This document shows, one piece after another, positions 3,398 through 28,775 of a DNA stretch of 64,000 nucleotides. Made by a program: the position numbers and the translations under genes. The DNA comes from Solirubrobacteraceae bacterium (GTDB taxonomy: Bacteria; Actinomycetota; Thermoleophilia; Solirubrobacterales; Solirubrobacteraceae). Under the pieces are notes generated by a model. It ran no database searches, was not told where the DNA came from, and worked only from the letters and a program-made list of their open reading frames with translations. The stretch lies in assembly GCA_035632775.1 (NCBI GenBank), contig DASQGE010000014.1, positions 13,705 to 77,704 on the forward strand, given 5' to 3'. Each line of letters begins with the position of its first letter. Position 1 is the stretch's first letter.

Positions 3398-3483
3398 CTG
3401 TCTGCTGGATCTAGCTTCGCCCAAGCGGCAGGCGGTCCTGCATTGCGCGGCGCTTGTACGCACGTACGCGTATCTTGCCCCGG

Positions 3484-6144: not shown

Positions 6145-6223
6145 CGACGTCGCAAAGCATCGCAGGCCCCGAGGTCATCTGCGCCCGAGAGCCGCGTCGC
6201 GCGCGGCGCAGGCGAGGGCGAGG

Positions 6224-8833: not shown

Positions 8834-8942
8834 CCAAGCCAGTCTAGGCGGCGTCAACCGCGCGGGCACTGCCGCGTGCGGCACGGGCTCGAGCTACGTG
8901 GCGGCGACCGTGCGGGCCATGCCGACCGCGGCTGGTGGCCGG

Positions 8943-11016: not shown

Positions 11017-12777
11017 TCAAACGATCTGATAGAGGGGTCCGTCGCCCCCCTCGGGCGTCGTGAGCCGGCCGCCCTTGGCGGTGATCGCGCCGCACTGGAC
11101 GCAGTTGGTGTAGTTGACGATCACGTCCACCTCGCCGTGCTCGGGCGCGTCCTCGGAAATCTCGTACACCCCCGCGGGACACATCCAGCGCCACGTTTCG
11201 GCGAGGACGCGCGGGACGTGCTTCTGGACGCGGATGTGGTTGGGCGCGTCGTCGCGGGTGGCGTTGCCGGTGATGAACACCGAGGAGAGCTTGTCGAAGG
11301 TGTACTTGCCGTCGGGCTTGGGGTAGGCGTCGGAGGTCTTGCCGAGGAACATCGGCTTGGCGTCGTTGCGGTGCAGCGCCCAGCGCCCGCCGGGGAACCG
11401 TCCCTTCGTGGCGATCATCAGGTTGACGAGCGGACCGCCCTTGATCAGACCCATCTGGAAGGGCTGACGCGTGTTGCGCTGTTCCCACAGGTCTTTGCCG
11501 ATGATCGACTCCTCGACGGCCTGCTCGTAAGACTCGAAGCTCGACTCGCCGCGCCTGAGCGCCGCGTAGATCGACTCGGCGGCGAGCATCCCGGACTTGA
11601 TCGCGTAGTGGACGCCCTTCAGCGATGCGAGGTTCATGATGCCCGCCGCGTCCCCGACGAGCGCCGCGCCGGGCATCGACAGCTTGGGCATCGCCCAGTA
11701 GCCACCCGCCGGAAGCGCCTTGGCGCCCCACGCGACGCGTTCGCCGCCCTCGAGAACCCCTCTGAAGAGCGGATGCGTCTTGATCTGCTGAAGCAGGTCG
11801 TGCGCGGAGGTGGTGGCATCCGCATAGTCGAGGTCGACGATGAAGCCGATCGAGACGAGATCCTCGCCGGTCTTCTCGTTCTTCATCGGGTACATCCACG
11901 ATCCGCCGATCTGCCCGTACTTGGCCGAGATCTTCAGCGGCCAGCCGGCGAGCGTGTGGATCACGCGGTCGAGCGGCTTGGGAACCTTCCAGACCTCCTT
12001 GACGCCGAGCTCCCACACCTGCGGCTCGCGGTTCTCGGCGAGGTCGAACTCGCGGATCGCCGCGCCCGTCAGATGCCCCCAGCAGCCCTCGGCGAGGACC
12101 GTGGCCTGCGCCTTGATGTCGGTGCCGGGCTCGAAGTTTCCGAGCGGCTCGCCGTCCTTGCCGCGACCCTTGTCGCCCGAGCGCACGCCGACGACGCGCC
12201 CGTCCTGCACGACCAGCTGCGTGGCGGCGGTCTCGGTGAGGATGTACGCGCCCGCCTCTTCGGCCTGGCGCTGCTGGAAGCGCGCCATCGCCGACACCGA
12301 GATCACCTCGTTGCCGTGGTTGTTCTGGGGCGGCGGAGGCGGGATGCGGATCTTGGTCTTGCCGTTGGGCAGGATGTAGACCGCCTCCTTGGTGACCTCG
12401 CCGAACGCGAAGCCCTCCTCGCGCCACTGCTCCCGCGTCAACTCCGGAAACAGCTCCTGCAACGGCCCTGGACGCATCACCGCTCCTGAAAGGGAGTGTC
12501 CGCCGCAGGTCTTGGCCTTCTCGATGACCGCGACGGGGACTTCGCCGAGGCGCTCCATGAGATCGCCCCCACCCGCCGCATCCTCGGCGAGCAGCTGCAG
12601 CAGCCGGTTCGCGCACGCGAGACCGGCGGTGCCTCCGCCGACGATCGCCACGCCGACCTCGATCAACTCGTCCTCGGCATCGAGGCCGTGCTTGACGAAC
12701 TCCTTCTGCGAGTCCACGGGCGGCGGGAACGCCGCCGGTATGACCCTGCCGTTGCTCGAGCCGTTATGAGATGACAT
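11017..12777 (-). CDS. ETF:quinone oxidoreductase (FixC flavoprotein with fused FixX-like ferredoxin)
   Basis: FAD motif VAIVGGGTAG, GGHSLSGAV, ELGVKEVW, LVGDAAG and C-terminal CPAGVYE..NCVQCG; directly downstream of etfA. Confidence 0.92.
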   Translation of the reverse strand: MSSHNGSSNGRVIPAAFPPPVDSQKEFVKHGLDAEDELIEVGVAIVGGGTAGLACANRLLQLLAEDAAGGGDLMERLGEVPVAVIEKAKTCGGHSLSGAVMRPGPLQELFPELTREQWREEGFAFGEVTKEAVYILPNGKTKIRIPPPPPQNNHGNEVISVSAMARFQQRQAEEAGAYILTETAATQLVVQDGRVVGVRSGDKGRGKDGEPLGNFEPGTDIKAQATVLAEGCWGHLTGAAIREFDLAENREPQVWELGVKEVWKVPKPLDRVIHTLAGWPLKISAKYGQIGGSWMYPMKNEKTGEDLVSIGFIVDLDYADATTSAHDLLQQIKTHPLFRGVLEGGERVAWGAKALPAGGYWAMPKLSMPGAALVGDAAGIMNLASLKGVHYAIKSGMLAAESIYAALRRGESSFESYEQAVEESIIGKDLWEQRNTRQPFQMGLIKGGPLVNLMIATKGRFPGGRWALHRNDAKPMFLGKTSDAYPKPDGKYTFDKLSSVFITGNATRDDAPNHIRVQKHVPRVLAETWRWMCPAGVYEISEDAPEHGEVDVIVNYTNCVQCGAITAKGGRLTTPEGGDGPLYQIV

Positions 12778-12916
12778 CGCTGAAGCACGCTCCTTTTCGC
12801 TCGCTCATCCGCATCCGCCCGTTTACAAGACCTCCGCAGGGCATCCCGCTCTGCGTCCCGACGAGAATGCTCGGCTTCCGGCCTCGCTTGACCGTTCGCG
12901 CCCCGCGCTCACTTTT

Positions 12917-13897
12917 CTAGCCGGCCTTCTTCGCCTTCACGGCCTCGGTCAGCTTCGGCAGGATCTTGTTGAGGTCGCCGACGATCCCGAGGTCGGAGAA
13001 CTCGAAGATCGGCGCGTTGGAGTCCTTGTTGATGGCGACGATGTTCTCGGAGGACTGCATCCCGACCTTGTGCTGGATCGCCCCGGAGATGCCCGCGGCG
13101 AGATACAGCTTCGGCGCGACCGTCTTGCCGGTCTGGCCGATCTGGGCCGCATACGGGTACCAGCCCGCATCGACCACGGCGCGCGTGGCGGCCACGGCGG
13201 CGTTTCCGCCGAACGCGCCCGCGAGCTCCTCGCACAGCTGGAAGCCCTCGGCCTTGCCCAGCCCGCGGCCGCCGGCGACGAGGATGTTGGCGCCCTCGAT
13301 GTCCACGTCGGCACCACGCTGTTCGCCGCGGGTGACTATCGTCGCCTGCTTGGCATGGGGGCTCAGCTCGAAGCTCAGCTGCTCTACGGGTGCATCGCCT
13401 CCACCGGTCTCCCGGATCTCGAAGGCGTTGAGGCGGCCGATGATGATCCCGACGTCGGAGCGGTACTTGATCTCGGAGATCGCCGAATCGCCCAGGATCG
13501 GGCGCTCGGCGATCAGCTCGCCGTTCTCGGCGCGCACGGATGTGACCTCCATCGCCACGCCCGCGCCGAGACGCGCGGCCAGGCCGGCGCCGATCTCGAA
13601 GCCGAGCAGGCCGCCGCCGAACAGCGCGTAGGAGTAGTCGCCGCCGGAGATCGCCGCCGCCATCGCATCGACCAGCGGTTGGGCAAGGCCCTCGGGGCCC
13701 TCGGCCACGAGCACCTTCTTGGCGCCGTAGTTGCCGAGTGACGCCGCCAGCTCCTGGGGGACGTTCTCGCCGAGCAGGATCGCGTGCGCCTCGCCGCCCA
13801 GCTCGGCGGCGAGCTTGGCGCCCTCGGAGACGGCGCCGAGCGAGTTCTTGTTGATCGCGCCCTCATAGTGCAGCGCATAGACCAGGATGTTTGCCAT
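12917..13897 (-). CDS. etfA: Electron transfer flavoprotein alpha subunit
   Basis: Motifs LVAGGRGLG, AATRAVVDAGW, QIGQTGKTVAPKLYLAAGISGAIQHKVGM and AINKDSNAPIF. Confidence 0.97.
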   Translation of the reverse strand: MANILVYALHYEGAINKNSLGAVSEGAKLAAELGGEAHAILLGENVPQELAASLGNYGAKKVLVAEGPEGLAQPLVDAMAAAISGGDYSYALFGGGLLGFEIGAGLAARLGAGVAMEVTSVRAENGELIAERPILGDSAISEIKYRSDVGIIIGRLNAFEIRETGGGDAPVEQLSFELSPHAKQATIVTRGEQRGADVDIEGANILVAGGRGLGKAEGFQLCEELAGAFGGNAAVAATRAVVDAGWYPYAAQIGQTGKTVAPKLYLAAGISGAIQHKVGMQSSENIVAINKDSNAPIFEFSDLGIVGDLNKILPKLTEAVKAKKAG

Positions 13898-13898
13898 G

Positions 13899-14036
13899 TC
13901 AGATCAACTTCTCCTTCAAAAACGGGTGGGGGCACTGGGGGAGGGCCTGCCCTCCCCCAGCTACAGAGGCGCCGAGCGAGTTCTTGTTGATCGCGCCTTC
14001 GTAGTGCAGCGCGTAGATGAGGATGTTCTTCGCCAT
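13899..14036 (-). pseudogene. 45-codon mini-ORF: diverged duplicate of the first 23 EtfA residues, a hairpin, then an EtfB-like C-terminus
   Basis: Translates as MAKNILIYALHYEGAINKNSLGA-SVAGGGQALPQCPHPF-LKEKLI*. 13968-14040 aligns with 13832-13901. Confidence 0.75.
13935..13960. repeat. Perfect 12-bp inverted repeat (hairpin)
   Basis: CTGGGGGAGGGC-CT-GCCCTCCCCCAG read directly. Confidence 0.9.
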
Positions 14037-14056
14037 GTCAGTTCACACGCTCCCTT

Positions 14057-14848
14057 TCAGATCAGCTTGCGCTCGTCGAGCCAGGCGACGATCCGCTCGA
14101 CCGTCTCGGCGGTGTCCTCGTCCTCGATGATCTCTCCGGCGGCCTTCGCGGGCGGGGCCTTCGCCGCGACCCACTGGGCGGCGGAGTTATCGCCTCCGAC
14201 CTTGCCCGCATCGACGCCCACGTCCGCGGCGGTGACGGCGTCGAGGGGCTTCTTCTTCGCGCCCATGATCGCCTTCAGCGACGGATAGCGCGGCTCGTTG
14301 ATCGCGTCGCCGACGGAGATCACCGCGGGCAGCTTGATCTGGACTGTGTCATAGCCGTACTCGGCCTGGCGCTCGCAGCGCAGCGCCTCGGGATCGACGT
14401 CCATCTTGATCACCTGCGTGAGCGAGGGCATGCCGAGGTGCTCGGCCACGACCGCGCCGATCGTGTAGCACTCGCCGTCGTCGGACTGCTGGCCGAGCAG
14501 CACCAGGTCGGGGCTCTCGCGCTCCAGCGTCTTGGCGAGGGCGTAGCCGGTGGCGGCGACGTCCGAGCCGGCGACAGCCGGGTCCGAGAGGTGCACGGAG
14601 CGGTCTGCGCCCAGCGAGACCGCCTTGTGCAGGGCGCGCACGGCGCTGTCCGGGCCCATCGTCACGGCGACGATCTCCTCGACCGGCACTGCGCCGCCCT
14701 CCTTGATCTGCATCGCCGCCTCGATGGCGTGCGTGTCATACGGGTTGAGGTTCTTCTCCCCGCTGCGGTCCATGCGCCCCGTCGAGGAATCGATCCTCTT
14801 CTCGACGGCGGCGTCCGGGACCTCCTTCACCAGGACGCATATCTTCAT
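14057..14848 (-). CDS. etfB: Electron transfer flavoprotein beta subunit
   Basis: Motifs MKICVLVKEVPD, LNPYDTHAIEAA, GADRSVHL, LGQQSDDGE and INEPRYPSLKAIMGAKKKP. Confidence 0.97.
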   Translation of the reverse strand: MKICVLVKEVPDAAVEKRIDSSTGRMDRSGEKNLNPYDTHAIEAAMQIKEGGAVPVEEIVAVTMGPDSAVRALHKAVSLGADRSVHLSDPAVAGSDVAATGYALAKTLERESPDLVLLGQQSDDGECYTIGAVVAEHLGMPSLTQVIKMDVDPEALRCERQAEYGYDTVQIKLPAVISVGDAINEPRYPSLKAIMGAKKKPLDAVTAADVGVDAGKVGGDNSAAQWVAAKAPPAKAAGEIIEDEDTAETVERIVAWLDERKLI

Positions 14849-14900
14849 TCTTGGGCTACTCCTTGGGGTCTGTTGGGGGGGATGCTACTCGTTTCAGCGG

Positions 14901-14916
14901 TTGACTGACGAGTCAA
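14901..14916. promoter_or_regulatory. Palindromic operator TTGAC-N6-GTCAA upstream of etfBA-ETF:QO
   Basis: The minus strand reads TTGACTCGTCAGTCAA, 14/16 identical to 35377-35392, and sits 18 nt upstream of a TAGCAT -10 candidate. Confidence 0.65.
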
Positions 14917-15350
14917 TCAGTCGCGACGGCGCCACGGATGAAGTCGACGATCGACTGGGTCGAGGCGCCCGGCGTGAACACCTCGGCGACCCCGAGGCGC
15001 TTCAGCTCGGGGATGTCCTCGGCGGGGATCGTGCCGCCGACGGTGACCAGGACGTCCTCGATGTCCTGGTCGCGCAGCAGCTCGACGATGCGCGGCACGA
15101 GCGTCATGTGCGCGCCCGAGAGGATCGACAGGCCGACCGCGTCGGCGTCCTCCTGGATGACCGTCTCGACGATCTGCTCCGGGGTCTGGTGCAGGCCGGT
15201 GTAGATGACCTCCATGCCGGCGTCGCGCAGCGCCCGGGCGATGATCTTCGCGCCGCGGTCGTGCCCGTCGAGGCCGGGCTTGGCCACGACTACGCGGATC
15301 TTGCCGCGGCGGGTGTCGGACGGGGGCGCCGAGGCCGTGGGCGAGGTCAT
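14913..15350 (-). CDS. Cobalamin-binding domain of a methylmalonyl/isobutyryl-CoA mutase (stand-alone small subunit)
   Basis: Motifs [41 protein letters not shown] and VGGTIP. Confidence 0.93.
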
Positions 15351-15361
15351 GGTCCGGCAGA

Positions 15362-16153
15362 TTATTCCCGGGAGCCGCCCGGCGTTCCCACGTGGTCTGA
15401 GATGAGCCGCCCCACACCGCCGAGCGCGGCGGCCCCGGCAAGCCCGGCGAAGACCTTCAGGCGGCGGCCGAGTCGATCGAGGTGCAGGATCTCCCAGCCC
15501 TCGCTCAGCGCGATGCGGCGCAGGTCGGCGTCGGGGTTGACGACCACCGGGTGGCCGACGGCCCGCAGCATCGGCAGGTCGGACTCCGAGTCCGAGTAGG
15601 CGTAGGAGGAGCTCAGGTCGATCGACTCGCGCGCGGCGAGCTCGCGCACCGACAGCAGCTTGCCCTCGCGGTAGTTGAACGGACCTGCGGGCCGGCCGGT
15701 GTAGCGCCCGTCGACGATCTCCGAGCGCGAGCCGAGACCGCCGTCGAAGGCGAGCACGTGCGCGAGCAGATCCGCCATCTCCTGGGAGGCGGCGGTGACG
15801 ATGTAGACGAGCAGGCCCACGTCCTGGTGGGCGTAGGCGCGCGCGAGCATCTGCGGGTACAGGCGCGGGAGCACGCCCGCGAGCACCCGCGGAGACAGGC
15901 GCTGCAGCTCGCGGACGGGCACGCCGGCGATCATCTTGCCGACGCGCTCGCGGACCTCGTCGGCGCGGTCGTCGGTCGAGCCGCGCAGGCGGAAGCGCAG
16001 GTTCGCGTACGCGTCACGGGCGAGCCTGCGGCGCGAGATCATGCCCGACTCGTAGGCGGCGCGGGCGAAGAAGATGCCCGACGAGCCCGCCATCAGCGTC
16101 TTGTCGAGGTCGAAGAACGCCGCCGGGCGGAGAGCTCCCGGTTCGCCGGTCAT
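15362..16153 (-). CDS. HAD-IB family hydrolase (SerB-like)
   Basis: Motifs [17 protein letters not shown] and [23 protein letters not shown]. Confidence 0.9.
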
Positions 16154-16334
16154 CTCGCCGAGATCCGGCGCCCACCGCCGATCAGCCGGCGGGCGGTCGA
16201 AGATGTGCGGTTCTTTGGGGTCGCGTCCGCGCGGGTGAGACGCCCCACGAGGCCACGGGCGCGGGACGTCCGGTCCCGCATCGACACGCGAGGCGCAGCC
16301 GGGAGCGAGCTCATGTGGATCGCTGGACGGCGCC

Positions 16335-17510
<1,176 letters not shown>

Positions 17511-17705
17511 GGATACAGGCTCTCCTGGGTCGATGAGGGAAACGGGTGGGTCGGGCAATGCTAATGGAGGCCCATCGAGAAACCCACTCGATGACCCAAC
17601 GGCCGATGGGGGCAAGCCACGACGCGTGTGCCATCACCAGAAGAGGTTGCACAGCTTGACTCCAGACAACCCAAGGGAAGCGCACCGGGTATCGTGCCCG
17701 GGTTC

Positions 17706-19199
17706 GTGCAGGTAGCCGCCACCAAACAGCCGGGCAGGGAGACCGAGGCCGACACCGTCGCCGTCGGTGTGTTCGAGGGCGAGGACCCCCCCGGCCATAC
17801 GCCCGCCGAGCTCGGCGAGCTGCTGCGCTCGGGCGAGGCGAAGCGCTCGCTGAAGGCGCTCGGCCTGGCGCATGCGGAGGGAAGGCGCTGGCTGTCGCTG
17901 GGGCTCGGCGCGCGCAAGGACTTCACGCCCGAGCGCGCGAGGGTCGCGGCTGCGGCCGCGCACACGCGCGCGCTGGAGATCTCGACTCGCGCCCTCTGCA
18001 TCCAGGCGCCGCCGGACGTCGGTCTCGACGTGGCGGGGGCGCTCACGCAGGGGGTCGTCCTCGCGGACTACCGCTTCGAGAAGCACAAGTCCACGCCGCC
18101 CGAGCCGCCCTCCGGGGAGAAGCCGCCGCCGAAGCGGCTGGAGCGCCTGATCCTCTCGCTGCCCGAGGCGTCCGGGGAGGGCGTCGAGGGCGAGTTGGAG
18201 ACACGCGTCGCCGAGGCCGCCCTCGTCGCCGAGGCCGCCAACGCCGCGCGCGAGCTGCAGAACCGGCCCGCCAACGATCTCACCCCGAGCGCGCTGGCCG
18301 AGTACGCGGTTGGGCTGGCTGCACCGATCGCGTCCCTGTCGGTCGAGATCGAGGGGCGCGCGGGAATCCACGCGCGCGGCATGGGCGCATTTGCGGCCGT
18401 CGCCCAGGGCTCCGCGCAGGAGCCGGCGCTGATCGTGCTGCGCTACGACCCTCCGAAGGGCGCCCGCGAGGGCGCCCCGGTGCTCGGCTTCGTCGGCAAG
18501 GCGGTGACGTTCGACAGCGGCGGCATCTCGCTGAAGCCGGGGGCGAAGATGGCCGAGATGAAGTTCGACATGTCCGGGGGCGCCGCCGTGATCGAGGCGG
18601 TCGCGGCGATCGCCAGGCTGGAGCTTCCGGTGAAGCTGGTGGCGGTGGTGGGCGCGACCGAGAACCTGCCGAGCGGACGGTCGGTGAAGCCCGGGGACAT
18701 CGTCACGGCGGCCAACGGGAAGACGATCGAGGTCAACAACACCGACGCCGAGGGCAGGCTCGTGCTGGCCGACTGCCTCTGCCACGCCGTCGAGCTCGGG
18801 GCGGAGCGGATCGTCGACCTGGCGACGCTCACGGGCGCGGTGATCATCGCGCTCGGCTCGACATACGCCGGACTGCTCAGCAACGACGACGAGCTCGCCG
18901 CACAGGTCCTCGGCGCCGGCGAGCGGAGCGGCGAGATCGCGTGGCGGCTGCCGCTGCACGAGGAGTACGACGAGCTGATCAAGGGCACGTACGGCGATCT
19001 GGACAACGCGCCGGAAGGGCGCAAGGCCGGCACGATCGTGGGCGCGACGTTCCTTGCGAACTTCATCGACAAGACGCCATGGGCGCACCTCGACATCGCC
19101 GGCTCGGCCTGGGATCTCGGGCGCGCATATGCGCCCAAGAGCGCGTCCGGCTACGGCGTGCGGCTGTTGGTCGAGCTGGCGCGCGCCTACTGCGCCTAG
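17706..19199 (+). CDS. pepA: Leucyl aminopeptidase (M17)
   Basis: Motifs VGKAVTFDSGGISLKP, MKFDMSG, NTDAEGRLVL, DLATLTGA and WAHLDIAG. Start uncertain (ORF open from 17628). Confidence 0.93.
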   Translation: MQVAATKQPGRETEADTVAVGVFEGEDPPGHTPAELGELLRSGEAKRSLKALGLAHAEGRRWLSLGLGARKDFTPERARVAAAAAHTRALEISTRALCIQAPPDVGLDVAGALTQGVVLADYRFEKHKSTPPEPPSGEKPPPKRLERLILSLPEASGEGVEGELETRVAEAALVAEAANAARELQNRPANDLTPSALAEYAVGLAAPIASLSVEIEGRAGIHARGMGAFAAVAQGSAQEPALIVLRYDPPKGAREGAPVLGFVGKAVTFDSGGISLKPGAKMAEMKFDMSGGAAVIEAVAAIARLELPVKLVAVVGATENLPSGRSVKPGDIVTAANGKTIEVNNTDAEGRLVLADCLCHAVELGAERIVDLATLTGAVIIALGSTYAGLLSNDDELAAQVLGAGERSGEIAWRLPLHEEYDELIKGTYGDLDNAPEGRKAGTIVGATFLANFIDKTPWAHLDIAGSAWDLGRAYAPKSASGYGVRLLVELARAYCA

Positions 19200-19226
19200 C
19201 TGCCGCGATCTGAGGAGAATGGCCCG

Positions 19227-20414
19227 ATGGACTTCGACCTCTCCCCCGACCACGAGCTGATCCGGCGCACGGTCAGGGACTTCGCCGAGGGCGAGATCGA
19301 GCCGGTCGCCGAGGAGCTCGACCGGACGAAGGCGTTCCCGTACGAGATCGTGCGCAAGCTCGGCGAGCTGAACCTGATGGGGATCCCGTTCCCGCTCGAG
19401 TACGGCGGCGGCGGCGGGGATACGCTGGCGTACGCGCTGGCGATCGAGGAGCTCGCGAGGGTGGACTCCTCGGTGGCGATCACCGTGTGCGCCCACACGT
19501 CGCTGGGGACGCAGCCGATCTACCTGTTCGGCAGCGAGGACCAGAAGCGGAAGTGGCTGCCGCAGCTGTGCTCCGGCGAAAGGCTGGGCGCTTTCGGGCT
19601 GACCGAGCCGGATGCCGGCAGCGACGCGGGCAACACGCGCACCCGCGCGCGGCTGGACGGCGAGGAGTGGGTGGTGGACGGCGCCAAGCAGTTCATCACC
19701 AACGCCGGGACCGAGATCTCGGGGATGGTGTGCATCACGGCCGTGACCGGCGAGACGCCGGCGAATGAGACGGCGGACGAAGGGGGCGTCGCGGCGAGCG
19801 GGGGCGGGAAGGAGATCTCGAACATCATCGTCTCCAACGGGACACCCGGCTACGAGCAGGGCGAGCCGTACCGGAAGATGGGCTGGCACGCGTCGGACAC
19901 GCGGCCGCTGACGTTCACCGACTGCAGGGTTCCCTCAGAGAACCTGCTGGGACCGCGGGGACAGGGGTTCAGGCAGTTCCTGCACATCCTCGACATCGGC
20001 CGGATCGGAGTCGCGGCGATGGGCGTGGGGCTCGCGCAGGGGGCGCTCGCGCAGGCGCTGAGCTACGCGAAGGAGCGCAAGGCGTTCGGCAGGCCGATCT
20101 CGAAGTTCCAGGCGATCCAGGCCAAGCTCGCGGACATGTCGGTCGAGATCGAGGCGGCGCGGATGCTGGTGCACAAGGCTGCGCTCCAGAAGGACGCGAA
20201 CCGCAGCTTCACGCTGACCGCCGCCCAGGCCAAGCTGAAGACGGGCCGCCTGGCGGTTCGCTGCGCGGAGGAGGCCGTGCAGATACACGGCGGCTACGGC
20301 TACATCGAGGAGTACCCCGTGTGCCGCTTCTACCGCGACGCCAAGATCCTCACGATCGGCGAGGGCACCGACGAGGTCCAGCAGATGGTGATCGCCCGCG
20401 CGCTCGGGGCGTAG
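19227..20414 (+). CDS. Acyl-CoA dehydrogenase (short/branched-chain type)
   Basis: Motifs AFGLTEPDAGSDA, GAKQFITN, GRIGVAA, FGRPISKFQAIQ, QIHGGYGYIEEY and IGEGTDEV. Confidence 0.95.
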   Translation: MDFDLSPDHELIRRTVRDFAEGEIEPVAEELDRTKAFPYEIVRKLGELNLMGIPFPLEYGGGGGDTLAYALAIEELARVDSSVAITVCAHTSLGTQPIYLFGSEDQKRKWLPQLCSGERLGAFGLTEPDAGSDAGNTRTRARLDGEEWVVDGAKQFITNAGTEISGMVCITAVTGETPANETADEGGVAASGGGKEISNIIVSNGTPGYEQGEPYRKMGWHASDTRPLTFTDCRVPSENLLGPRGQGFRQFLHILDIGRIGVAAMGVGLAQGALAQALSYAKERKAFGRPISKFQAIQAKLADMSVEIEAARMLVHKAALQKDANRSFTLTAAQAKLKTGRLAVRCAEEAVQIHGGYGYIEEYPVCRFYRDAKILTIGEGTDEVQQMVIARALGA

Positions 20415-20999: not shown

Positions 21000-21138
21000 C
21001 GTGGCGCAATCTACCGGCAAGACGCGTCGACCGGCGGGCTGTATAGTTCCGGGCTGGTCCTGGGCCGCGTCTCTCGGGCGTGTGGAGGGGCGCCCTGGAC
21101 AGCTGGCGGCGAACTGGGCAAGGAAGGGGTTCGACCTG

Positions 21139-23010: not shown

Positions 23011-23073
23011 CCGGCCTGGCCGTCGGCCAGAGCGAGACAGCCGGCCTGCTCGGCGACCCGCTCGCACTCTCGC

Positions 23074-24054
23074 TCACCGCCGCGACCCCCGCGACCCGCG
23101 CTCCAGCAGCGCCGTGGCGGCGCTCGCCGGGTCCAGACGCCGGGCGACGACCTCGTCGATGAGCCGCTTGAACTCGGCGTCCCCCCGGAGCTCGTCCTCC
23201 AGGCGCCGGCGCATCCGGGCGGTGGCTATCGCGAGCACCTCGCTGCGCAGGTTGCGACTACGTCGCTCCTGCAGGGTGCCCGCGGCGAGGATGTGCGCGC
23301 GGTGCTCGTCCAGGCGCGCCACCAGCTCGGGGATGCCCGTCCCGTGGACCGCCTCGGTCTTGACGATCGGCACGCGCCAGCCGGCGCGCACCTCGTCCCC
23401 GGAGCGCTCGAGATTGGCCAGCGAGAGCACGCCGCGGATCTCGCGGACCATCGTGTCGGTGAGCGGATGATCGGCCTTGTTGATGACGATCACGTCGGGG
23501 ATCTCCATCACGCCGGCCTTGAGCGCCTGGATCGAGTCGCCGGAGCCGGGCATCAGCACGAGCACGATCGTGTCGGCGTGGTCGATGATGTCGATCTCGG
23601 CCTGGCCGACGCCGACGGTCTCGACGAACACGTCTTCGCGCCCGGCCGCGTCGAGCAGCAGGGCCGCCTGCAGCGCCGCCTCCGACAGGCCGCCGAGGGC
23701 GCCGCGGTTGGCCATCGAGCGGATGAACACGCCGGGGTCCAAGAAGTGCTCGCCCAGGCGGATGCGGTCGCCGAGCAGCGCCCCCTGGGTGAAGGGCGAG
23801 GAGGGGTCGATCGAGAGCACCCCCACCGTGCGCCCAGCCTCGCGCCTGGCCTTCGTCAGCGCTCCGATCAGCGTGGACTTGCCGACGCCCGGCGGCCCGG
23901 TGAAGCCGACGACCGCGGCCTTGCCGGTGTGCGGGTAGACCTCGCGCACGAGCGCCCAGCCCTCGGGGCGGTCGTCCTCGACGAGCGAGATCCCACGCGC
24001 GAGCGCGCGGCGGTCGCCGGCGAGCAGGCGTTGGGCGAGCGTTGCGTCGGTCAT
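23074..24054 (-). CDS. meaB: Methylmalonyl-CoA mutase-associated GTPase
   Basis: Motifs GFTGPPGVGKST, IDPSSPFTQGALLGDRIR, FIRSMA, ETVGVGQAE and KAGVMEIPD. Confidence 0.95.
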   Translation of the reverse strand: MTDATLAQRLLAGDRRALARGISLVEDDRPEGWALVREVYPHTGKAAVVGFTGPPGVGKSTLIGALTKARREAGRTVGVLSIDPSSPFTQGALLGDRIRLGEHFLDPGVFIRSMANRGALGGLSEAALQAALLLDAAGREDVFVETVGVGQAEIDIIDHADTIVLVLMPGSGDSIQALKAGVMEIPDVIVINKADHPLTDTMVREIRGVLSLANLERSGDEVRAGWRVPIVKTEAVHGTGIPELVARLDEHRAHILAAGTLQERRSRNLRSEVLAIATARMRRRLEDELRGDAEFKRLIDEVVARRLDPASAATALLERGSRGSRR

Positions 24055-24092
24055 CGCGGCGCAATCATCGCAGGGCACTACGATGCGACGCG

Positions 24093-24785
24093 ATGGAGCC
24101 CTCGCTCGCCGATCCCGCCATGCAGGCGCCCTCCGAGGAGATCGCAGACGCGCTGCGGCGGGCGCCCGAGAAGCTGCACGGCGGGCCGTTGACGCTGCTG
24201 CGGTTCATGCGCGCGAACAACATGCTCAGCCGCCACTACGCGAGGCTGCTGGTGCGCTACGCGCTGCTTCGGCTGCGCTTCGGAAAGCGCCTGCAGACGG
24301 ACGGGATCTGCTTCGTCTGCCCGGGCGTGAAGCTCGAGATCGGACCAGCGGCGACGCTTCGCATCGGCCGCTGGGCGTGGATCGGGCACGGCAGCAAGAT
24401 CAGGGTGCACGAGGGCGAGGTCAGCATCGGCGCGAAGACGGTGATGGGCCAGGAGTGCACCATCTCGGCATACCAGCGCGTGGAGATCGGGCGCGAGTGC
24501 ATCGTCGCCGACCGCGTGATGCTGATCGACTTCGACCACGGCATCGTCGAGGTCGAGCGGCCGATCCGGCTGCAGGGCATCTACAAGCGCGACATCCGGG
24601 TCGGGCACAACGTCTGGATCGGCTACGGCGCCTGCATCCTGCGCGGGGTGAGCGTCGGGGACAACAGCATCGTGGGTACGAGCGCGGTCGTGACCGGGGA
24701 CGTGCCGGAGAACGCGATCGTGGGGGGCATCCCGGCGCGGGTGATCCGCATGCGCGAGGCGCCCCGCTCGATGCGCTGGGAGTGA
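24093..24785 (+). CDS. Hexapeptide-repeat (LbH) O-acetyltransferase, Rv3034c-like
   Basis: IGRWAWIGHGSKIRVHEGEVSIG, DFDH...PIRLQGIYKRDIRVG..VWIG and VGGIPARVI resemble recalled M. tuberculosis Rv3034c motifs. Confidence 0.85.
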   Translation: MEPSLADPAMQAPSEEIADALRRAPEKLHGGPLTLLRFMRANNMLSRHYARLLVRYALLRLRFGKRLQTDGICFVCPGVKLEIGPAATLRIGRWAWIGHGSKIRVHEGEVSIGAKTVMGQECTISAYQRVEIGRECIVADRVMLIDFDHGIVEVERPIRLQGIYKRDIRVGHNVWIGYGACILRGVSVGDNSIVGTSAVVTGDVPENAIVGGIPARVIRMREAPRSMRWE

Positions 24786-24813
24786 GCGGTCATATGCGCC
24801 GGGGTGAGCGGGG

Positions 24814-26346
24814 TCACGGCGCGAGCAGCAGCGAAGGGTCGGCGTGGACGGCCAGCTCGCGCAGGCCGGTGAGATCCGCGCCGGGGCCTTCTTCGAGCGC
24901 GCGGGAGAGCGCGGCGCGATGCCCCTCGAAGCGCTCGCGGGCGTACGGGACGGCCAGGCCGCGAGAGACCATGAAGGCCCAGTCGCTCGACTGCAGCGCG
25001 AGCAGCTCGCGGACGGCGGCCGGGCCCGCGATCCCCGACACGGCCGCGGCCAGCGTCTGCAGCTCGGCCGCGCGCGCGGCGAACGCCAGCTCGGCGACGG
25101 CTGGACCGGACCAGGTGCCCAGGTCGTTGTCCCGGCCCCAGCTGCTGGGCGGCGAGTCCTCCCAGGTCCACGCTCGCTCCGAGCCGGCGCGCGCCTCCGC
25201 GGGCGCGCGCAGCTCGGCGACGGGCAGAGGCTCGAAGCGCTCTATGGCGTCGTCGAGGCGCACGAGCTCGAGGCCCCGAGCGGCGCTCTCGGAGATGACG
25301 GCCTGCAGCCAGGCGAGCCCCTCGTACCACCAGTGCCCCAGCAGCTCGGTGTCGAGCGCGCACACGGCGAGCCCGCCGCCGGGCAGCCCGGCGCCCTCGC
25401 CGGCCAGGCGCTGCAGCGTGCGATCGACGAAGTCCGCGGCGTGCAGCCGTGCGCGCGAGCGCGCGCGCTCGAAGTCGTAGCCCTCGCCGCCGTTGGCCCA
25501 CGGGTTATGGTGGTGGACGGTATGGCGGTGGTAGTCGCGGTAGACGTCGTCCGCGGGATAGCCCGAGTCGCTCCACACGAGCGAGATCAGCGAGCGGTCG
25601 ATCGGGAAGAGCACGATGCCCGAGTCGGACAGCAGCGGCCGCAGGTTCTCGCGCGCGGCGCGTCCGAGGCGGCGGGTGAGCTCCACGCAGGTGGCACGCA
25701 CGCCCGCGGCCGCGAGGATCGGCTCCAGATGGGGCGCATGGGCGCACTCGGGCAGCCAGAAGCCGCCTCGCCAGCCCTGGTCGAAGCGGCTGCGATGGGA
25801 GGCGATGCCGGTCTGCGCCTGCAGACGCGCGCAGGCGTCGGTCGCCAGCAGCGGCAGGACGGCGTGGGTGGCGGACGAGGTCCAGGAGACGTGCGGCGAG
25901 AGCGCTCCCAGCAACTCGCCGCCGCGCGCGGCGAAGCGCTCGAGGGCGTGCTCGTAGTCCGCGCTCCACGCGCGCTGCAGCTCGGCGGCGAGCTTTGGAT
26001 GGCCGCCGGCGCGCAGCCCGGCGGCGTCCTCCCCATGGGTGAACCGGCGGGTCTCCTGCACGAAGCGGCGGAAGCGCTCCTCCAGGCCGGGCGCGGAGAG
26101 CTGGTCACAGAGGACGGGCGTGAGCGAGAGCGTCAGCGGCGCATCGCCCGAGTCGAGCAGGTCGAGCAGGGGCAGGTAGCAGCCGCAGATCGCCTCCCAC
26201 AGCCACTCCTCCCCGAACGGCCAGGTGCCGAACGACTCGACGTAGGGCATGTGGGTGTGCAGCACGATCGCCAGCGCGCCACTCGCGCGCGCGCCGCGTC
26301 CGGGCCGCGGGCCGGACGCGGCCGAGCCCCCGCCCGGGCTGCTCAC
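24814..26346 (-). CDS. GH57 1,4-alpha-glucan branching enzyme (DUF1957), Rv3031-like
   Basis: Motifs IVLHTHMPYV, GEEWLWEA, ATHAVLPL, GFWLPECA, DTELLGHWWYEG and ELLALQSSDWAF. GTG 26346 overlaps the methyltransferase stop (GTGA). Confidence 0.9.
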   Translation of the reverse strand: MSSPGGGSAASGPRPGRGARASGALAIVLHTHMPYVESFGTWPFGEEWLWEAICGCYLPLLDLLDSGDAPLTLSLTPVLCDQLSAPGLEERFRRFVQETRRFTHGEDAAGLRAGGHPKLAAELQRAWSADYEHALERFAARGGELLGALSPHVSWTSSATHAVLPLLATDACARLQAQTGIASHRSRFDQGWRGGFWLPECAHAPHLEPILAAAGVRATCVELTRRLGRAARENLRPLLSDSGIVLFPIDRSLISLVWSDSGYPADDVYRDYHRHTVHHHNPWANGGEGYDFERARSRARLHAADFVDRTLQRLAGEGAGLPGGGLAVCALDTELLGHWWYEGLAWLQAVISESAARGLELVRLDDAIERFEPLPVAELRAPAEARAGSERAWTWEDSPPSSWGRDNDLGTWSGPAVAELAFAARAAELQTLAAAVSGIAGPAAVRELLALQSSDWAFMVSRGLAVPYARERFEGHRAALSRALEEGPGADLTGLRELAVHADPSLLLAP

Positions 26347-27134
26347 GGCCGGCAGACCGCGACGAAGTCGAGCGCCCGATCCAGCTCGGCAGAGGCGGCC
26401 GGGCGCAGCCTGAAGTCGGACGCGGCGATCGCCGGGGTGAAGCGGTCGTAGAAGAGACGCGTCACGCCCAGGCGCCGATGGACGGGGTCCCAGCCGGCGC
26501 GGAGCGCGAGCTCGTGCACGCGCAGCTTGCGCGCGTGAAAGAGCCCGTGGAGCTCCACGGAGGGAAAGACGCCGCGACAGAGTCGCTCGAACTCCTCCGC
26601 GCGGTACTCGTGGACGTGCCACGGGTTGTCCGAGCGCGCGGCCCCCTGCGGCGCGAGCGTGAGCACGTTGGGCGTGGAGACGAAGACGGTCCCCACGTCA
26701 CCCACCAGCGAGCCGAAGTGCTCGAGCACCGAGGCGGGGTTCTGGACGTGCTCGATCGTCTGCAGGAACACGACGGAGTCGGCCGGCTGGCAGAACGTCT
26801 CGACCAGGTCCCGCACGAAGCGGAGATTGGGACGGGTGTAGCGCAGGCGGGCGTGCTCGAACGCTTCGGGGTTGGCGTCGATCCCTACGACCTCGGCGGC
26901 GACGCGCGCGAGCAGATCCGAGCCATAGCCCTCGCCGCAGGCCATGTCGAGCACGCGCAGCCCCTCCACGCGCGCCGCGATCCACTCATACACCGCGAGG
27001 TGGCGGCGAAACCAGTAGTTCTCGGCCGGAACGTCCGGGAGGGTGCGCTCTCCCGTGAGCGCGAGCGGCGGCACGCCGGGAGGCTGGTCGCGCTGCTCGT
27101 GAGGGTTGGCCCCTAAAAGGGACGAAGCGGCCAC
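26343..27134 (-). CDS. Class I SAM-dependent methyltransferase, Rv3030-like
   Basis: LALTGERTLPDVPAENYWFRRHLAVYE, VLDMACGEGYG, FLQTIEH and VSTPN..NPWHVHEY resemble recalled Rv3030 motifs. Confidence 0.87.
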   Translation of the reverse strand: MAASSLLGANPHEQRDQPPGVPPLALTGERTLPDVPAENYWFRRHLAVYEWIAARVEGLRVLDMACGEGYGSDLLARVAAEVVGIDANPEAFEHARLRYTRPNLRFVRDLVETFCQPADSVVFLQTIEHVQNPASVLEHFGSLVGDVGTVFVSTPNVLTLAPQGAARSDNPWHVHEYRAEEFERLCRGVFPSVELHGLFHARKLRVHELALRAGWDPVHRRLGVTRLFYDRFTPAIAASDFRLRPAASAELDRALDFVAVCRP

Positions 27135-27169
27135 GGCGCGCGAGTATACGAGCGCTAGTGTCTGCCGCC

Positions 27170-28444
27170 ATGCTCGGCCTCAGGCACGCCCGCCACATCC
27201 CACCGCCGCGCGCTTCCCGGACCGCGAGGCTCGCGGCGACGCTCGGCGCCGCCGCGGCGACGCTGATCGCGCTGGCGGGCTGTGGCAAGGCGGCCCCCGA
27301 ACAGCAGAGCGGCGCGGGCGTCGAAACGGTCGTGGTGAAGATCGGCGCGGCGGGCACGGCGGCCACGGCCACGCGCAACACGACACGGCTGGGCGGCGCC
27401 GACGCCGTGGCCGACGCCGCCGCGGTCGCACGGGCGGCCTACCCGGGCTTGACGGCTGACACCCGCCCGCAGGCCGTGGTCCTCGCCGACACGGGCGACT
27501 GGCCGGCGGCGCTCGCCGCCTCCGCGCTGGCGAGCGCGCCGCTGGGCGCGCCGCTGCTGTACGCCGAAGGGCAGAAGCTGGGGCAGGCGAGCGTGCGTGC
27601 GCTGCATGCGCTGCGCCCGACGGGAGCGAGCGCGCTCGGCGGCGCGCAGGCGCTGTTGCTGGGCGCGTCGATCGAAGCTCCCAGCGGCTACCGCGCGCGC
27701 GGGACAAGCCTCCGCGACCCCTATTCGCTGGCGGCGTCGGTCGCGCAGCTGCTCGCGATCGTGCGCGGAGCGAGCCCCCGTCAGGCGATCGTCGTGGCCG
27801 CGGACGGGCCACCGGCGCTGGCGATGCCCGCGGCGGGACTGGCGGCCGAGAGCGGCGCGCCGATCCTGTTCGTGACCGCAAGCGGCGTCCCGGCGGCGAC
27901 CGCCGCGGCGCTGAAGAGCCTCGGCCGGCCGGCGATCTACACCGTCGGGTCCACGGCGATCGGCGAACGGACGCTCGCCCAGCTCGGGAGGTTCGGCACG
28001 GTCAAGCGTGTCGAGTCCAGGGCGGGCGAAGACGCCACCGCGGCGGGCAACGCGATCGCGGTCTCGCGCTTCACCGACGGATCGTTCGGCTGGGGGGTCC
28101 TGGAACCGGGACACGGGCTCGTGTTCGCCAACGCGGGGCGCCCGTTCGACGCGCCCGCGGCGGCGATCCTGTCCGCCACGGGGGACTACGCGCCGCTGCT
28201 GCTGCTCGAAGACGCCGGCCGGGTGGGGCCCGCGCTGGGCTCCTACCTGAGCGACATCCAGCCGGCCGCGCCCCGATCGCAGCCGGCCAGGGGCGTCTAC
28301 AATCACGGCTGGCTGATCGGCGACGAGCGCGCGATCGCGCAGGGCACGCAGGCCGAGCTCGACGCGCTGCTCGAGATCGCGCCGCACAGCTCGCCCGGCG
28401 AAGGCGCCCAGTCGGGCGAAGGACCGGTGGCCACGACAGGATGA
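27170..28444 (+). CDS. Lipoprotein with cell-wall-binding repeat 2 (CWB2)-like segments
   Basis: Lipobox LAGC; TRLGGADAVADAAAVA, WPAALAASALA..GAPLLY and GAPILFVT..VPAAT resemble CWB2 repeats. Confidence 0.68.
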   Translation: MLGLRHARHIPPPRASRTARLAATLGAAAATLIALAGCGKAAPEQQSGAGVETVVVKIGAAGTAATATRNTTRLGGADAVADAAAVARAAYPGLTADTRPQAVVLADTGDWPAALAASALASAPLGAPLLYAEGQKLGQASVRALHALRPTGASALGGAQALLLGASIEAPSGYRARGTSLRDPYSLAASVAQLLAIVRGASPRQAIVVAADGPPALAMPAAGLAAESGAPILFVTASGVPAATAAALKSLGRPAIYTVGSTAIGERTLAQLGRFGTVKRVESRAGEDATAAGNAIAVSRFTDGSFGWGVLEPGHGLVFANAGRPFDAPAAAILSATGDYAPLLLLEDAGRVGPALGSYLSDIQPAAPRSQPARGVYNHGWLIGDERAIAQGTQAELDALLEIAPHSSPGEGAQSGEGPVATTG

Positions 28445-28481
28445 TCCCCACACCACTCGACCACCCCCGTCCCACCTGCAC

Positions 28482-28775
28482 ATGAGTCAGGCCGAAGATT
28501 CCGACCTGCCGCGCTCCGGGCAGGCGCACGAAGTGACCGTCGAGGACGTGCGCCGGCTGATGGGCGCGTCCACCCCCCACTTCGCGCTGCAGCTGCGCGA
28601 CCGCATCGCGCGCCTGATAGCCGACCTCCCCCCGGACCACCCGGCGCGCGCGGAAGGGGAGCGCGAGATCGCCCGCCTGCAGCGCCTCGGGCTCGAAGGC
28701 GAGACGCGCGGCGAGGCGGCGGACACCGGCGAGCGGCCGCTGCCCTCGCTCGGGGCCTCCCTCAGCGCCGGCTGA
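28482..28775 (+). CDS. Small helical hypothetical protein
   Basis: Intergenic ORF with protein-like composition (VTVEDVRRLMGASTPHFALQLRDRI). Confidence 0.65.
   Translation: MSQAEDSDLPRSGQAHEVTVEDVRRLMGASTPHFALQLRDRIARLIADLPPDHPARAEGEREIARLQRLGLEGETRGEAADTGERPLPSLGASLSAG

Follow-up and report, generated by a model that had tools for sequence, protein, structure and literature searches.

We analysed a 64,000-nucleotide (64-kb) stretch of DNA (the window) from a soil actinobacterium that named matches place close to Solirubrobacteraceae, in the deep-branching class Thermoleophilia. In it, genes for a methyltransferase (MT), a GH57 protein and a convergent acyltransferase lie together as a trio. 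The trio and its immediate surroundings are as follows.

26343..27134, minus strand: MT, a putative Rv3030-type class I SAM-dependent O-methyltransferase (263 aa, GTG start; Pfam Methyltransf_23, 3.7e-16)
24814..26346, minus strand: putative Rv3031-type GH57 'branching-enzyme-like' transglucosylase (510 aa; Glyco_hydro_57 (PF03065) 5.4e-18, BE_C 3.7e-10)
26343..26346, minus strand: GTGA overlap of MT and GH57 (MT stop TGA at 26343-26345, GH57 start GTG at 26344-26346)
24786..24813, no strand: gap of 28 bp between the convergent stops of GH57 and the acyltransferase
24093..24785, plus strand: putative Rv3034c-type LbH (hexapeptide-repeat) O-acyltransferase (230 aa; Pfam Hexapep 4.9e-08)
23074..24078, minus strand: MeaB, acyl-CoA mutase-associated GTPase (Pfam MeaB 4.3e-83; TIGR00750 above cutoff)
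27158..28444, plus strand: CWB2-domain putative lipoprotein (Pfam CW_binding_2), divergent upstream of MT

The three genes are confirmed at these positions. The GTGA coupling of MT to GH57 and the convergent LbH acyltransferase, both claimed in an earlier note on this DNA, were borne out by the positions of the open reading frames, their Pfam domains and the sequence at 26343-26346 (...ccgGTGAgc), and the overlap is best read as translational coupling of the two genes. MeaB is divergent from the acyltransferase and is regarded as a conserved neighbour that gives context, without a claim of pathway membership. Artefact reading frames of high-GC DNA were ruled out (GC3 0.85-0.89 with low GC2, and dN/dS 0.17-0.39). 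The dN/dS values, obtained against close relatives, indicate purifying selection on all three genes, and MeaB showed values of 0.14-0.18 in the same comparisons.

The comparison drew on three orthologous mycobacterial loci, one each in Mycolicibacter (L002), on an M. phlei-like contig (L084) and in M. heidelbergense (L085). They have one layout in common, with ETFα and ETFβ on the minus strand, MT, GH57 and a glycosyltransferase (GT) on the plus strand, and a Hexapep acyltransferase on the minus strand; the 4-bp overlap of MT and GH57 is also found in L002 and L084. In the mycobacterial MGLP (6-O-methylglucose lipopolysaccharide) cluster, genetic evidence links Rv3030 to 6-O-methylation and Rv3032 to elongation; what Rv3031 and Rv3034c do is a matter of proposals in mycobacteria too (PMC4555173, PMC2674218).

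The window MT, which further matches Pfam Methyltransf_31, Methyltransf_25, Methyltransf_11 and Methyltransf_12, is 36-38% identical over the full length (37% at 138 bits) to the MTs at the Rv3030 position of the three mycobacterial loci. The window and mycobacterial MTs have in common the invariant N-terminal motif LTGERTxP...ENYWFxRH (window LTGERTLPDVPAENYWFRRH, mycobacterial LTGERTVPGLAEENYWFRRH; invariant columns T27, G28, E29, R30, P33, E38, N39, Y40, F42, R44 and H45). The family is narrow, as a search of 1.84 billion representatives returned only 197 clusters of 50% identity at E<=1e-30, and a mycobacterial representative (P0267) is among them. The first gene expected of an MGLP-type cluster, an Rv3030-type SAM methyltransferase, is thus present.

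The window acyltransferase is 35-38% identical (E~1e-40, 128-129 bits) to the convergent Hexapep proteins of L084 and L085, and this score is about twice that of either protein with its best solved relative (73 and 56 bits). The identity covers the N-terminal region and the IGRW...HEG...DFDH motif (window IGRWAWIGHGSKIRVHEG...DFDH, mycobacterial IGRWVHIGDKNTIRCHEG...DFDH). The best solved relatives of the window protein are maltose/galactoside O-acetyltransferases (3hjj, 2.5e-19). Maa/LacA and WbbJ/WcaF-type O-acetyltransferases share its LbH hexapeptide-repeat C-terminal catalytic region and are its best solved and NCBIfam partial matches, all with scores below the family cutoffs; however, a basic N-terminal extension of about 100 residues, common to the window acyltransferase and the Rv3034c-position proteins, is absent from Maa and LacA. 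The window thus has an LbH acyltransferase of Rv3034c type that converges on the MT-GH57(-GT) operon.

The window GH57 is 32% identical to the mycobacterial Rv3031 orthologs and has a corresponding N-terminal signature (window LHTHMPYVESFGTWPFGEEW, mycobacterial LHTHLPWLAHHGRWPVGEEW); all three N-terminal signatures that the earlier note had listed were found in the window proteins and in the fetched mycobacterial orthologs. Among solved structures it comes closest to the branching enzymes of Thermococcus kodakarensis (3n8t, 1.9e-49) and Thermus. With the solved GH57 glycogen branching enzymes (GBEs; TK1436 3n8t, T. thermophilus TT1467 1ufa/3p0b and P. horikoshii 5wu7) it shares the fold family, the C-terminal BE_C domain and the CSR motifs including the nucleophile Glu and acid/base Asp. 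In the alignment to 3n8t and 1ufa, Glu200 (FWLPECA) and Asp332 (LDTELLGHWW) align with E183 and D354 of 3n8t, so the catalytic Glu (CSR III) and Asp (CSR IV) of true GBEs are both there. True GBEs carry a flexible loop of 17-22 residues and β5-β6 strands between CSR III and CSR IV, and Rv3031 is deficient in both and inactive on amylose (PMC9291813). In the window GH57 the Glu-to-Asp spacing is 132 residues, 39 fewer than the 171 in T. kodakarensis (about 170 in T. thermophilus), and residues 217-268 of the T. thermophilus and 192-242 of the T. kodakarensis enzyme have no counterpart in the HMMER alignment. The shorter spacing suggests loss of elements needed for branching activity. Read from spacing and alignment, the window GH57 appears to be without the loop and β5-β6 elements, like Rv3031; its spacing resembles that of the mycobacterial orthologs, and it would fall in the 92% 'loop-deficient' class that includes Rv3031.

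Pairwise scores of the window GH57 are not discriminating (167-173 bits with Rv3031 orthologs, 164-172 bits with archaeal and Thermus GBEs), and the mycobacterial GH57 scores higher with Thermococcus (240 bits) than with the window protein. In a neighbour-joining tree the Thermoleophilia and mycobacterial GH57s group in 76% of bootstraps, and all MT-linked GH57s lie apart from the two solved GBEs, which are the only outgroups. GH57 is the weak point of the homology to the mycobacterial cluster. Its location immediately downstream of MT, its coupling to MT and its loop-deficient spacing are those of an Rv3031-type gene.

Synteny was counted in loci of 80 Thermoleophilia species. The trio and MeaB are found together again and again in these loci: GH57 adjoins MT in 63/75 (with GH57 nearby in 9 more), an NTGA overlap lies at the MT stop in 52/80, the acyltransferase is convergent in 54 of the 64 informative loci and MeaB follows it in 49/64. 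An Rv3032-like GT, 38-40% identical to the mycobacterial GT, occurs in 34/69 loci, and a second methyltransferase (MT2), 35-39% identical to the second MT of the mycobacterial locus, lies divergently upstream in 72/77. The fuller layout of many loci is accordingly MT2, then divergently MT, GH57 and GT, then the convergent acyltransferase and, divergent from it, MeaB. Gene calls made independently, together with Pfam, confirm this layout in L090 and L091, where GT comes directly after GH57 and overlaps it by 4 bp. The full five-gene set is also present in a third lineage (L088), beside ACAD, ECH and B12-binding genes. The MT-GH57 pair was found with no adjoining GT or acyltransferase at a locus of a Geothermincolia-like MAG (L086), and MT-GH57 adjacency was also found in two unassigned metagenome contigs. 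Synteny across Thermoleophilia, named as a check in the earlier note, is thus strong.

These results bear on a simpler explanation, in which GH57 is the cell's ordinary glycogen branching enzyme and MT and the acyltransferase are functionally unrelated neighbours. GH57 is named '1,4-alpha-glucan branching enzyme' in databases, and in Pfam/NCBIfam profile searches no cluster protein reached a curated equivalog cutoff, and the only families matched were the generic ones for GH57/GBE, class I MTs and LbH proteins. However, MT and GH57 share a 4-bp overlap and their adjacency is kept in Thermoleophilia, Mycobacteriales, the Geothermincolia-like MAG and the two metagenome contigs, both classes keep the acyltransferase in the same position, and the Glu-to-Asp spacing suggests that branching elements are lost. 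We therefore regard this explanation as very improbable.

Two of the five recurrent members are missing from the window. No tblastn match (E<=1e-5) to the Rv3032-type glucosyltransferase was detected anywhere in the 64 kb, so the earlier note was correct about its absence here, and no homolog of the 323-aa MT of L084 (MT2) or of the Thump_like protein was found in the window. The window MT itself gave no cross-hit to the MT2 family. The 28-bp gap marks the site where an Rv3032-like GT4 glucosyltransferase directly follows GH57 in about half of the related species, and the divergent upstream position of MT2 is taken by the CWB2 gene; the closest relatives (L001 and L006) have the same replacement and also lack GT at their loci. 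As about half of the Thermoleophilia loci carry GT between GH57 and the acyltransferase, its absence is a derived state. Because GT and MT2 recur in Thermoleophilia relatives, the window holds a reduced version of an ancient actinobacterial cluster. Such losses, together with a dN/dS of the trio above that of MeaB, could mean that what is left of the ancestral cluster is a relic in decay, nonfunctional after GT and MT2 were lost. This is hardly credible, since the reading frames are intact, the motifs for catalysis and SAM binding are conserved and the GTGA coupling persists. In addition, three independent comparisons, those with the equally reduced L001 and L006 among them, all gave dN/dS well below 1.

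At lower coordinates the window holds an acyl-CoA metabolism neighbourhood (11017..20414 as a whole, no strand), in which the following genes provide context.

11017-12804, minus strand: ETF-QO
12917-13903, minus strand: ETFα
14057-14884, minus strand: ETFβ
14934-15296, minus strand: B12-binding protein
15362-16492, minus strand: HAD
16335-17633, minus strand: thiolase
19227-20414, plus strand: acyl-CoA dehydrogenase

Two thiolases in all and a 3-hydroxyacyl-CoA dehydrogenase lie near the trio, and L001 keeps the same acyl-CoA gene order. An unrelated M17 peptidase also sits among these genes. The earlier note had placed ETF and beta-oxidation genes nearby, which holds as to presence; but ETFβ and ETFα, on the same strand as MT and GH57, are 9.2 kb and six genes away from the trio, while in mycobacteria they are adjacent and divergent. 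ETF is closer to the cluster in L057 and is present in L089. The loose ETF linkage in the window (9 kb, different orientation) counts against reading the trio as an MGLP cluster.

Compared with the mycobacterial Rv3030-Rv3037c cluster, the window is alike in the order of MT and GH57 with a 4-bp overlap, the convergent LbH acyltransferase downstream, the family-specific motifs and the ETF and acyl-CoA genes in the vicinity; most of its Thermoleophilia relatives are further alike in the Rv3032-type GT and second MT, which in the window are absent from the locus. The window and mycobacterial proteins are only 32-38% identical, and the hosts differ (a Thermoleophilia member versus mycolate-producing Mycobacteriales). 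The Thump_like, PQQ_2 and DUF3298 genes of the mycobacterial region occur in none of the Thermoleophilia loci. In the comparisons run against orthologs at the Rv3030, Rv3031 and Rv3034c positions, nothing contradicted the homology that the earlier note had proposed, and its MGLP-type interpretation gains support from the MT and acyltransferase identities and from synteny, with weaker support from GH57. We consider it probable that an ancient actinobacterial cluster, of which the trio forms the conserved core, is the ortholog of the MGLP cluster Rv3030-Rv3034c of mycobacteria.

Under this orthology, a cytoplasmic α-(1→4)-glucooligosaccharide would be handled by GH57 acting as a retaining transglucosylase, whose Glu/Asp pair is intact. 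Without the loop and β5-β6 elements, GH57 is less likely to introduce bulk branches, as in classical glycogen branching, than to make or remodel one particular α-1,6 linkage or a primer. The coupled SAM methyltransferase would O-methylate glucose units (at O-6 in mycobacteria), and the LbH acyltransferase would transfer short acyl groups from acyl-CoA to hydroxyls of the sugars as esters. An amphipathic α-glucan, partly methylated and acylated, may result; glucans of this kind have been proposed to form complexes with long-chain acyl-CoAs. As the dedicated Rv3032-like α-1,4-glucosyltransferase and the second methyltransferase are gone from the locus in this lineage, another glucan synthase, or a GT now located elsewhere, would have to supply the backbone. 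Methylation probably follows a simpler pattern, and the pathway may be altered or repurposed. The papers found that name Thermoleophilia genera made no mention of MGLP or glucosylglycerate, no O-methylglucose polymer is known to have been reported from Thermoleophilia, and GpgS (Rv1208), GpgP (Rv2419c) and OctT (Rv2418c) were seen in none of the fetched loci, which are the part of the genomes covered.

The trio products might instead act on a small glucoside or short oligosaccharide, for example a methylated or acylated metabolite of glucosylglycerate or maltooligosaccharide type. The minimal conserved unit is MT and GH57, as in L086; no chain-elongating GT lies at the loci of the window, L001 and L006; and Rv3031, inactive on amylose, has been proposed to act on glucosylglycerate (PMC9291813; PMC4555173). 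However, about half of the relatives do have the Rv3032-type GT, joined to GH57 by the 4-bp overlap in L090 and L091. Moreover, Rv1212c, another M. tuberculosis glycogen synthase, partly substitutes for Rv3032 (PMC2674218), so a GT missing from the locus does not imply that the polymer is missing. We hold such a small product to be unlikely, and the glucan product of an MGLP-type cluster remains our preferred reading. A parallel in concept is the mycobacterial MMP cluster (MeT1, MeT3, ManT and MmpH), in which a glycosyltransferase, methyltransferases and a glycoside hydrolase compactly encode a cytoplasmic polymethylated polysaccharide (PMC9883506); it differs in using mannose, in having an (α/α)6-fold hydrolase instead of GH57 and in lacking an LbH acyltransferase, and homology is not claimed.

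Work on MGLP spans 60 years and has dealt almost exclusively with mycobacteria, and its physiological role is debated between buffering of long-chain acyl-CoAs and heat adaptation. For several steps of its synthesis the enzymes are candidates at most, which applies to the part of Rv3031, to the acyltransferases and to the 3-O-methyltransferase. The distribution of the genes suggests that polymers of this family, although discovered in mycobacteria, have a far greater age and a far wider spread than that group. Tentatively, with a chance that we put slightly short of even, MGLP-type polymethylated acylated α-glucans are an ancestral trait of Actinomycetota, and the module of five genes behind it (MT2, MT, GH57, GT and the LbH acyltransferase) survives in Thermoleophilia, Mycobacteriales, the Geothermincolia-like MAG and unassigned lineages, repeatedly beside acyl-CoA genes. 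If so, such polymers would not be a speciality of mycobacteria or Nocardia, MT and GH57 together would make up the core that the pathway cannot do without, and the window would show the pathway running, or rewired, without its dedicated glucosyltransferase. A module in presumed non-mycolate soil actinobacteria uncouples the polymer from mycolic-acid biology. Pathway membership is also constrained, as the five genes co-occur across lineages whereas Thump_like, PQQ_2 and DUF3298 do not. Conexibacter and Solirubrobacter offer non-pathogenic, cultivable test organisms, and Conexibacter stalactiti KCTC 39840 is a cultured relative that carries the cluster (locus L023). Natural variants without GT and MT2, such as the window, are ready-made knockouts for the contribution of each enzyme. 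If the five-gene module is ancestral, MT2 would be an unrecognised conserved member of the MGLP-type pathway. The second methyltransferase of the mycobacterial region is named Rv3037c in the literature, and by its position MT2 would be an Rv3038c-type gene; Rv3038c was reportedly flagged in a TnSeq screen for oleic-acid resistance in M. tuberculosis.

All three genes of the set described in the earlier note were found at its coordinates and confirmed by Pfam, within a window of ~71% GC whose named database relatives belong to Solirubrobacteraceae, class Thermoleophilia. The three genes and their neighbours are as follows.

Genes of the trio and its surroundings in the window
11017-14884, minus: ETFβ, ETFα and ETF-QO (AcT side)
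14934-15296, minus: small B12-binding protein, near ETF
19227-20414, plus: acyl-CoA dehydrogenase (AcT side); beyond it, M17 aminopeptidase, thiolase and HAD hydrolase
21001-23010: 669-aa secreted protein with fn3 domain (AcT side)
23074-24078, minus: MeaB (AcT side)
24093-24785, plus: hexapeptide-repeat (LbH) acyltransferase (AcT), 230 aa
24814-26346, minus: GH57 protein, 510 aa
26343-27134, minus: class I SAM methyltransferase (MT), 263 aa
27158-28444, plus: CWB2-domain lipoprotein, lipobox LAGC (MT side)
MT side, beyond the lipoprotein: XseA, then farther off thiolase and 3-hydroxyacyl-CoA dehydrogenase

The proposed coupling of MT and GH57 is visible in the sequence, where the MT stop is overlapped by the GTG start of GH57 (GTGA), and AcT and GH57 are convergent with a gap of 28 bp. 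The nearest solved structures are branching enzymes of Thermococcus, Thermus and Pyrococcus for GH57, maltose and galactoside O-acetyltransferases for AcT, and only generic UbiG-like methyltransferases for MT. All three genes have high GC3 and dN/dS values of 0.17-0.39 against relatives, a sign of purifying selection, and are thus maintained genes. A decaying relic fits less well, as does a cluster for a small-molecule product; both explain the coupling and the selection less well than a cluster of the type for 6-O-methylglucose lipopolysaccharide (MGLP), the methylated and acylated glucan of mycobacteria. The proteins of the cluster are not represented by any curated model in NCBIfam, and a promoter and terminator scan of 23000-28600 gave no match, as expected given 73% GC and a σ70 consensus.

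Sequence comparison indicates that the window cluster is homologous to the mycobacterial MGLP cluster but reduced. A search with MT against 1.84 billion representatives yielded only 197 clusters at E<=1e-30, among them a Mycolicibacter protein (P0267). In the locus of this protein (L002), ETFα and ETFβ on the minus strand are followed on the plus strand by MT, GH57 (4-bp overlap) and a GT4/GT5 glucosyltransferase. Two further mycobacterial loci (L084, M. phlei-like, and L085, M. heidelbergense) carry IscS, two acyltransferases, ETFα and ETFβ (minus), then MT, GH57 and the glucosyltransferase GT (plus), then the Hexapep AcT (minus), and beyond it PQQ_2 ... DUF3298, Thump_like, a 323-aa methyltransferase and enoyl-CoA hydratase, which equals the literature layout of Rv3025c-Rv3039c. 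The genes of the three loci are given putative Rv numbers according to their gene order. Against the mycobacterial orthologs, the window proteins show 36-38% identity over the full length for MT (134-138 bits), 35-38% for AcT (128-129 bits) and 32-33% for GH57 (167-173 bits), and the three N-terminal signatures that the earlier note gave occur in both. For AcT, the score is about twice that of the best solved LbH relative of either protein (73 and 56 bits), and the match takes in the distinctive N-terminal extension. In the MGLP cluster as published, Rv3030 is the 6-O-methyltransferase, Rv3031 the GH57 protein, Rv3032 the α-1,4-glucosyltransferase and Rv3034c the acetyltransferase; Rv3030 is genetically implicated in methylation and Rv3032 in elongation, while Rv3031 and Rv3034c have proposed roles only (PMC4555173, PMC2674218).

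GH57 is the least clear-cut member of the trio. By pairwise score, archaeal and Thermus branching enzymes are as close to the window protein as the mycobacterial orthologs are, and mycobacterial GH57 matches that of Thermococcus with 240 bits. A neighbour-joining tree was built of 24 MT-linked GH57s and two solved glycogen branching enzymes (GBEs), the latter rebuilt from HMMER alignments; in it, both GBEs split from all MT-linked proteins and the Thermoleophilia GH57s grouped with the mycobacterial ones (bootstrap 76%, modest support because there are two outgroups only). The catalytic residues are kept in the window protein (Glu200 in FWLPECA, Asp332 in LDTELLGHWW), and the spacing between them is 132 residues, compared with 123-138 in the Thermoleophilia GH57s of the spacing alignment, 139 in mycobacterial GH57s, and 171 and about 170 in the true GBEs of T. 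kodakarensis and T. thermophilus. The absent stretch is at the position of the β5-β6 elements and a flexible loop, which are needed for branching and are missing in Rv3031, a protein inactive on amylose (PMC9291813). Therefore, the window GH57, although it resembles the GBEs, probably does not branch glycogen, and the same probably applies to its mycobacterial counterpart. Plain glycogen branching explains the coupling and selection of the trio less well than an MGLP-type cluster.

To describe the synteny in relatives, genome contigs were searched with a diverse MT alignment. The confirmed loci numbered at least 343, of which the best 80 were retained, all from Thermoleophilia species (Solirubrobacteraceae, Conexibacter, Baekduia, Thermoleophilaceae). 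Neighbours were counted as tblastn matches over those of the best 80 loci with enough flanking sequence. GH57 lies immediately 3' of MT in 63 of 75 loci and has been moved away by inserted genes in 9 of 75; in 52 of 80, the stop codon of MT overlaps a start codon in the form NTGA. AcT is downstream and convergent in 54/64 loci, and MeaB, an acyl-CoA mutase GTPase chaperone, adjoins it on the far side in 49/64. An Rv3032-like GT4 lies between GH57 and AcT in 34 of 69 loci and shares 38-40% identity over ~400 residues with the mycobacterial GT. Independent gene calls with Pfam in two loci of full layout (L090, L091) gave a second methyltransferase, MT2 (minus), then MT, GH57 and GT with 4-bp overlaps, AcT (minus) and MeaB. 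Cultured Conexibacter stalactiti KCTC 39840 likewise has the full cluster (L023). The genes inserted in the cluster of some relatives (peptidase A4, PMT_2, GGDEF, ABC-2/MacB transporters, MMPL, NUDIX, ferritin-like) were rejected as pathway members and treated as unrelated because none is GpgS-, GpgP- or OctT-like. Between GT and AcT, an MMPL-family transporter occurs in two Thermoleophilaceae loci (L065:12465-14717(-), L066:13415-15718(-)), and ABC-2 or MacB-type transporters in others.

MT2 (~310 aa, class I) is divergent upstream of MT in 72 of 77 loci (of the same best 80 of at least 343), for example at L090:4857-5789(-) and L091:4890-5804(-). It shares 35-39% identity (E 1e-50 to 1e-64) with the 323-aa methyltransferase of the mycobacterial region, which is located between the Thump_like gene and enoyl-CoA hydratase (L084:19512-20483(-)) and which, by position in the H37Rv gene order, would be Rv3038c and not the Rv3037c of the MGLP papers. 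The gene rv3038c scored in a TnSeq screen for oleic-acid resistance in M. tuberculosis (PMC13279779). MT2 is a candidate for an MGLP methyltransferase so far unassigned. GT and MT2 are both missing from the window, as they are from L001 and L006, to which it is most closely related: the place expected for GT holds only 28 bp, that for MT2 (27135-28444) holds the CWB2 lipoprotein gene, and tblastn detected no homolog of either in the whole 64 kb, so the absence of an Rv3032 equivalent stated in the earlier note holds for the window. Because GT and MT2 are present in many relatives, the window cluster is a reduced derivative of their fuller cluster. A search for a relocated copy in GT-less genomes with a Thermoleophilia GT query found none among the best 120 matches, all at least 85% identical, and GT was inside the cluster in both contexts checked. 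Among Solirubrobacteraceae, GT is 85-92% identical (best 120 database matches; L079, L090, L091), far above the co-located MT (~70%) and GH57 (40-60%), which suggests that constraint differs greatly between genes of a single operon.

Outside Thermoleophilia and Mycobacteriales, the module was detected in four contigs.

Loci in other lineages
L086, 10001-12324: MT-GH57 pair, Ca. Geothermincolia-like MAG
L087, 10001-13631: MT-GH57-GT, 41% GC contig
L088, 1789-9049: MT, GH57, GT, AcT and MT2 (the last at 8099-9049(-)), unassigned contig of 64% GC
L089, 10001-12277: MT-GH57, ~6.7 kb from ETFβα

At 90% identity, the formate-tetrahydrofolate ligase of L086 clusters with Candidatus Solincola sediminis, which belongs to the class Ca. 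Geothermincolia, and the full set in L088 adjoins acyl-CoA dehydrogenase, enoyl-CoA hydratase and B12-binding genes. Thus the MT-GH57 pair is the invariant core, and the larger module lies beside acyl-CoA metabolism genes in independent lineages. Upstream of the module, an FAD amine-oxidase-like gene is found in L086, L087 and L088, and an isochorismatase in L086 and L087. In four database representatives of ~750 aa (P0245, 751 aa; P0199, P0232 and P0252), an MT-like half is joined to a GH57-like half. These proteins may be true fusions, or ORFs merged by frameshifts at the 4-bp overlap, and are most simply read as frameshifted or merged ORFs of high-GC metagenome assemblies; with patchy coverage (e.g. 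P0245), they were set aside as Rosetta-stone evidence.

The substrate of the window enzymes would be an α-glucan of the cytoplasm, either an oligomer or a polymer, in which GH57 would make or remodel a specific linkage, MT would O-methylate glucose and AcT would add short acyl groups, giving an amphipathic glucan. Since GT and MT2 are gone from the locus, the backbone would have to come from another synthase, and the methylation pattern is probably simpler in this lineage. The acyl groups on MGLP are propionate, isobutyrate and succinate, whose CoA esters are interconverted by B12 mutases; a tie of MeaB and the B12-binding protein to MGLP acylation is speculative. A small B12-binding mutase subunit is near ETF in the window and adjoins the cluster in L088. 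In M. tuberculosis, Rv3032 is partly replaced by Rv1212c (PMC2674218), and MGLP is known from mycobacteria and Nocardia otitidiscaviarum (PMC3240985, PMC9883506). The papers that our searches listed for Thermoleophilia genera mention neither MGLP nor glucosylglycerate. To our knowledge, the polymer has never been sought in the window's lineage. The chief worth of the cluster is the comparative picture it opens, and cultures of Conexibacter and Solirubrobacter allow a direct test.

The ETF and β-oxidation genes named in the earlier note do lie near the trio, with ETF 9.2 kb off and non-adjacent. The conserved block is flanked by two secreted or surface proteins, the CWB2 lipoprotein and the fn3 protein, whose genes look like lineage-specific insertions; L001 is without the fn3 gene. 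At 2-6174, the window carries cell-envelope glycan genes (polysaccharide deacetylase, MGDG-synthase/GT28-like glycosyltransferase, GT87 and WecA/MraY-type Glycos_transf_4), followed by Sua5/YrdC, RF-1 and a DUF1385 protein.
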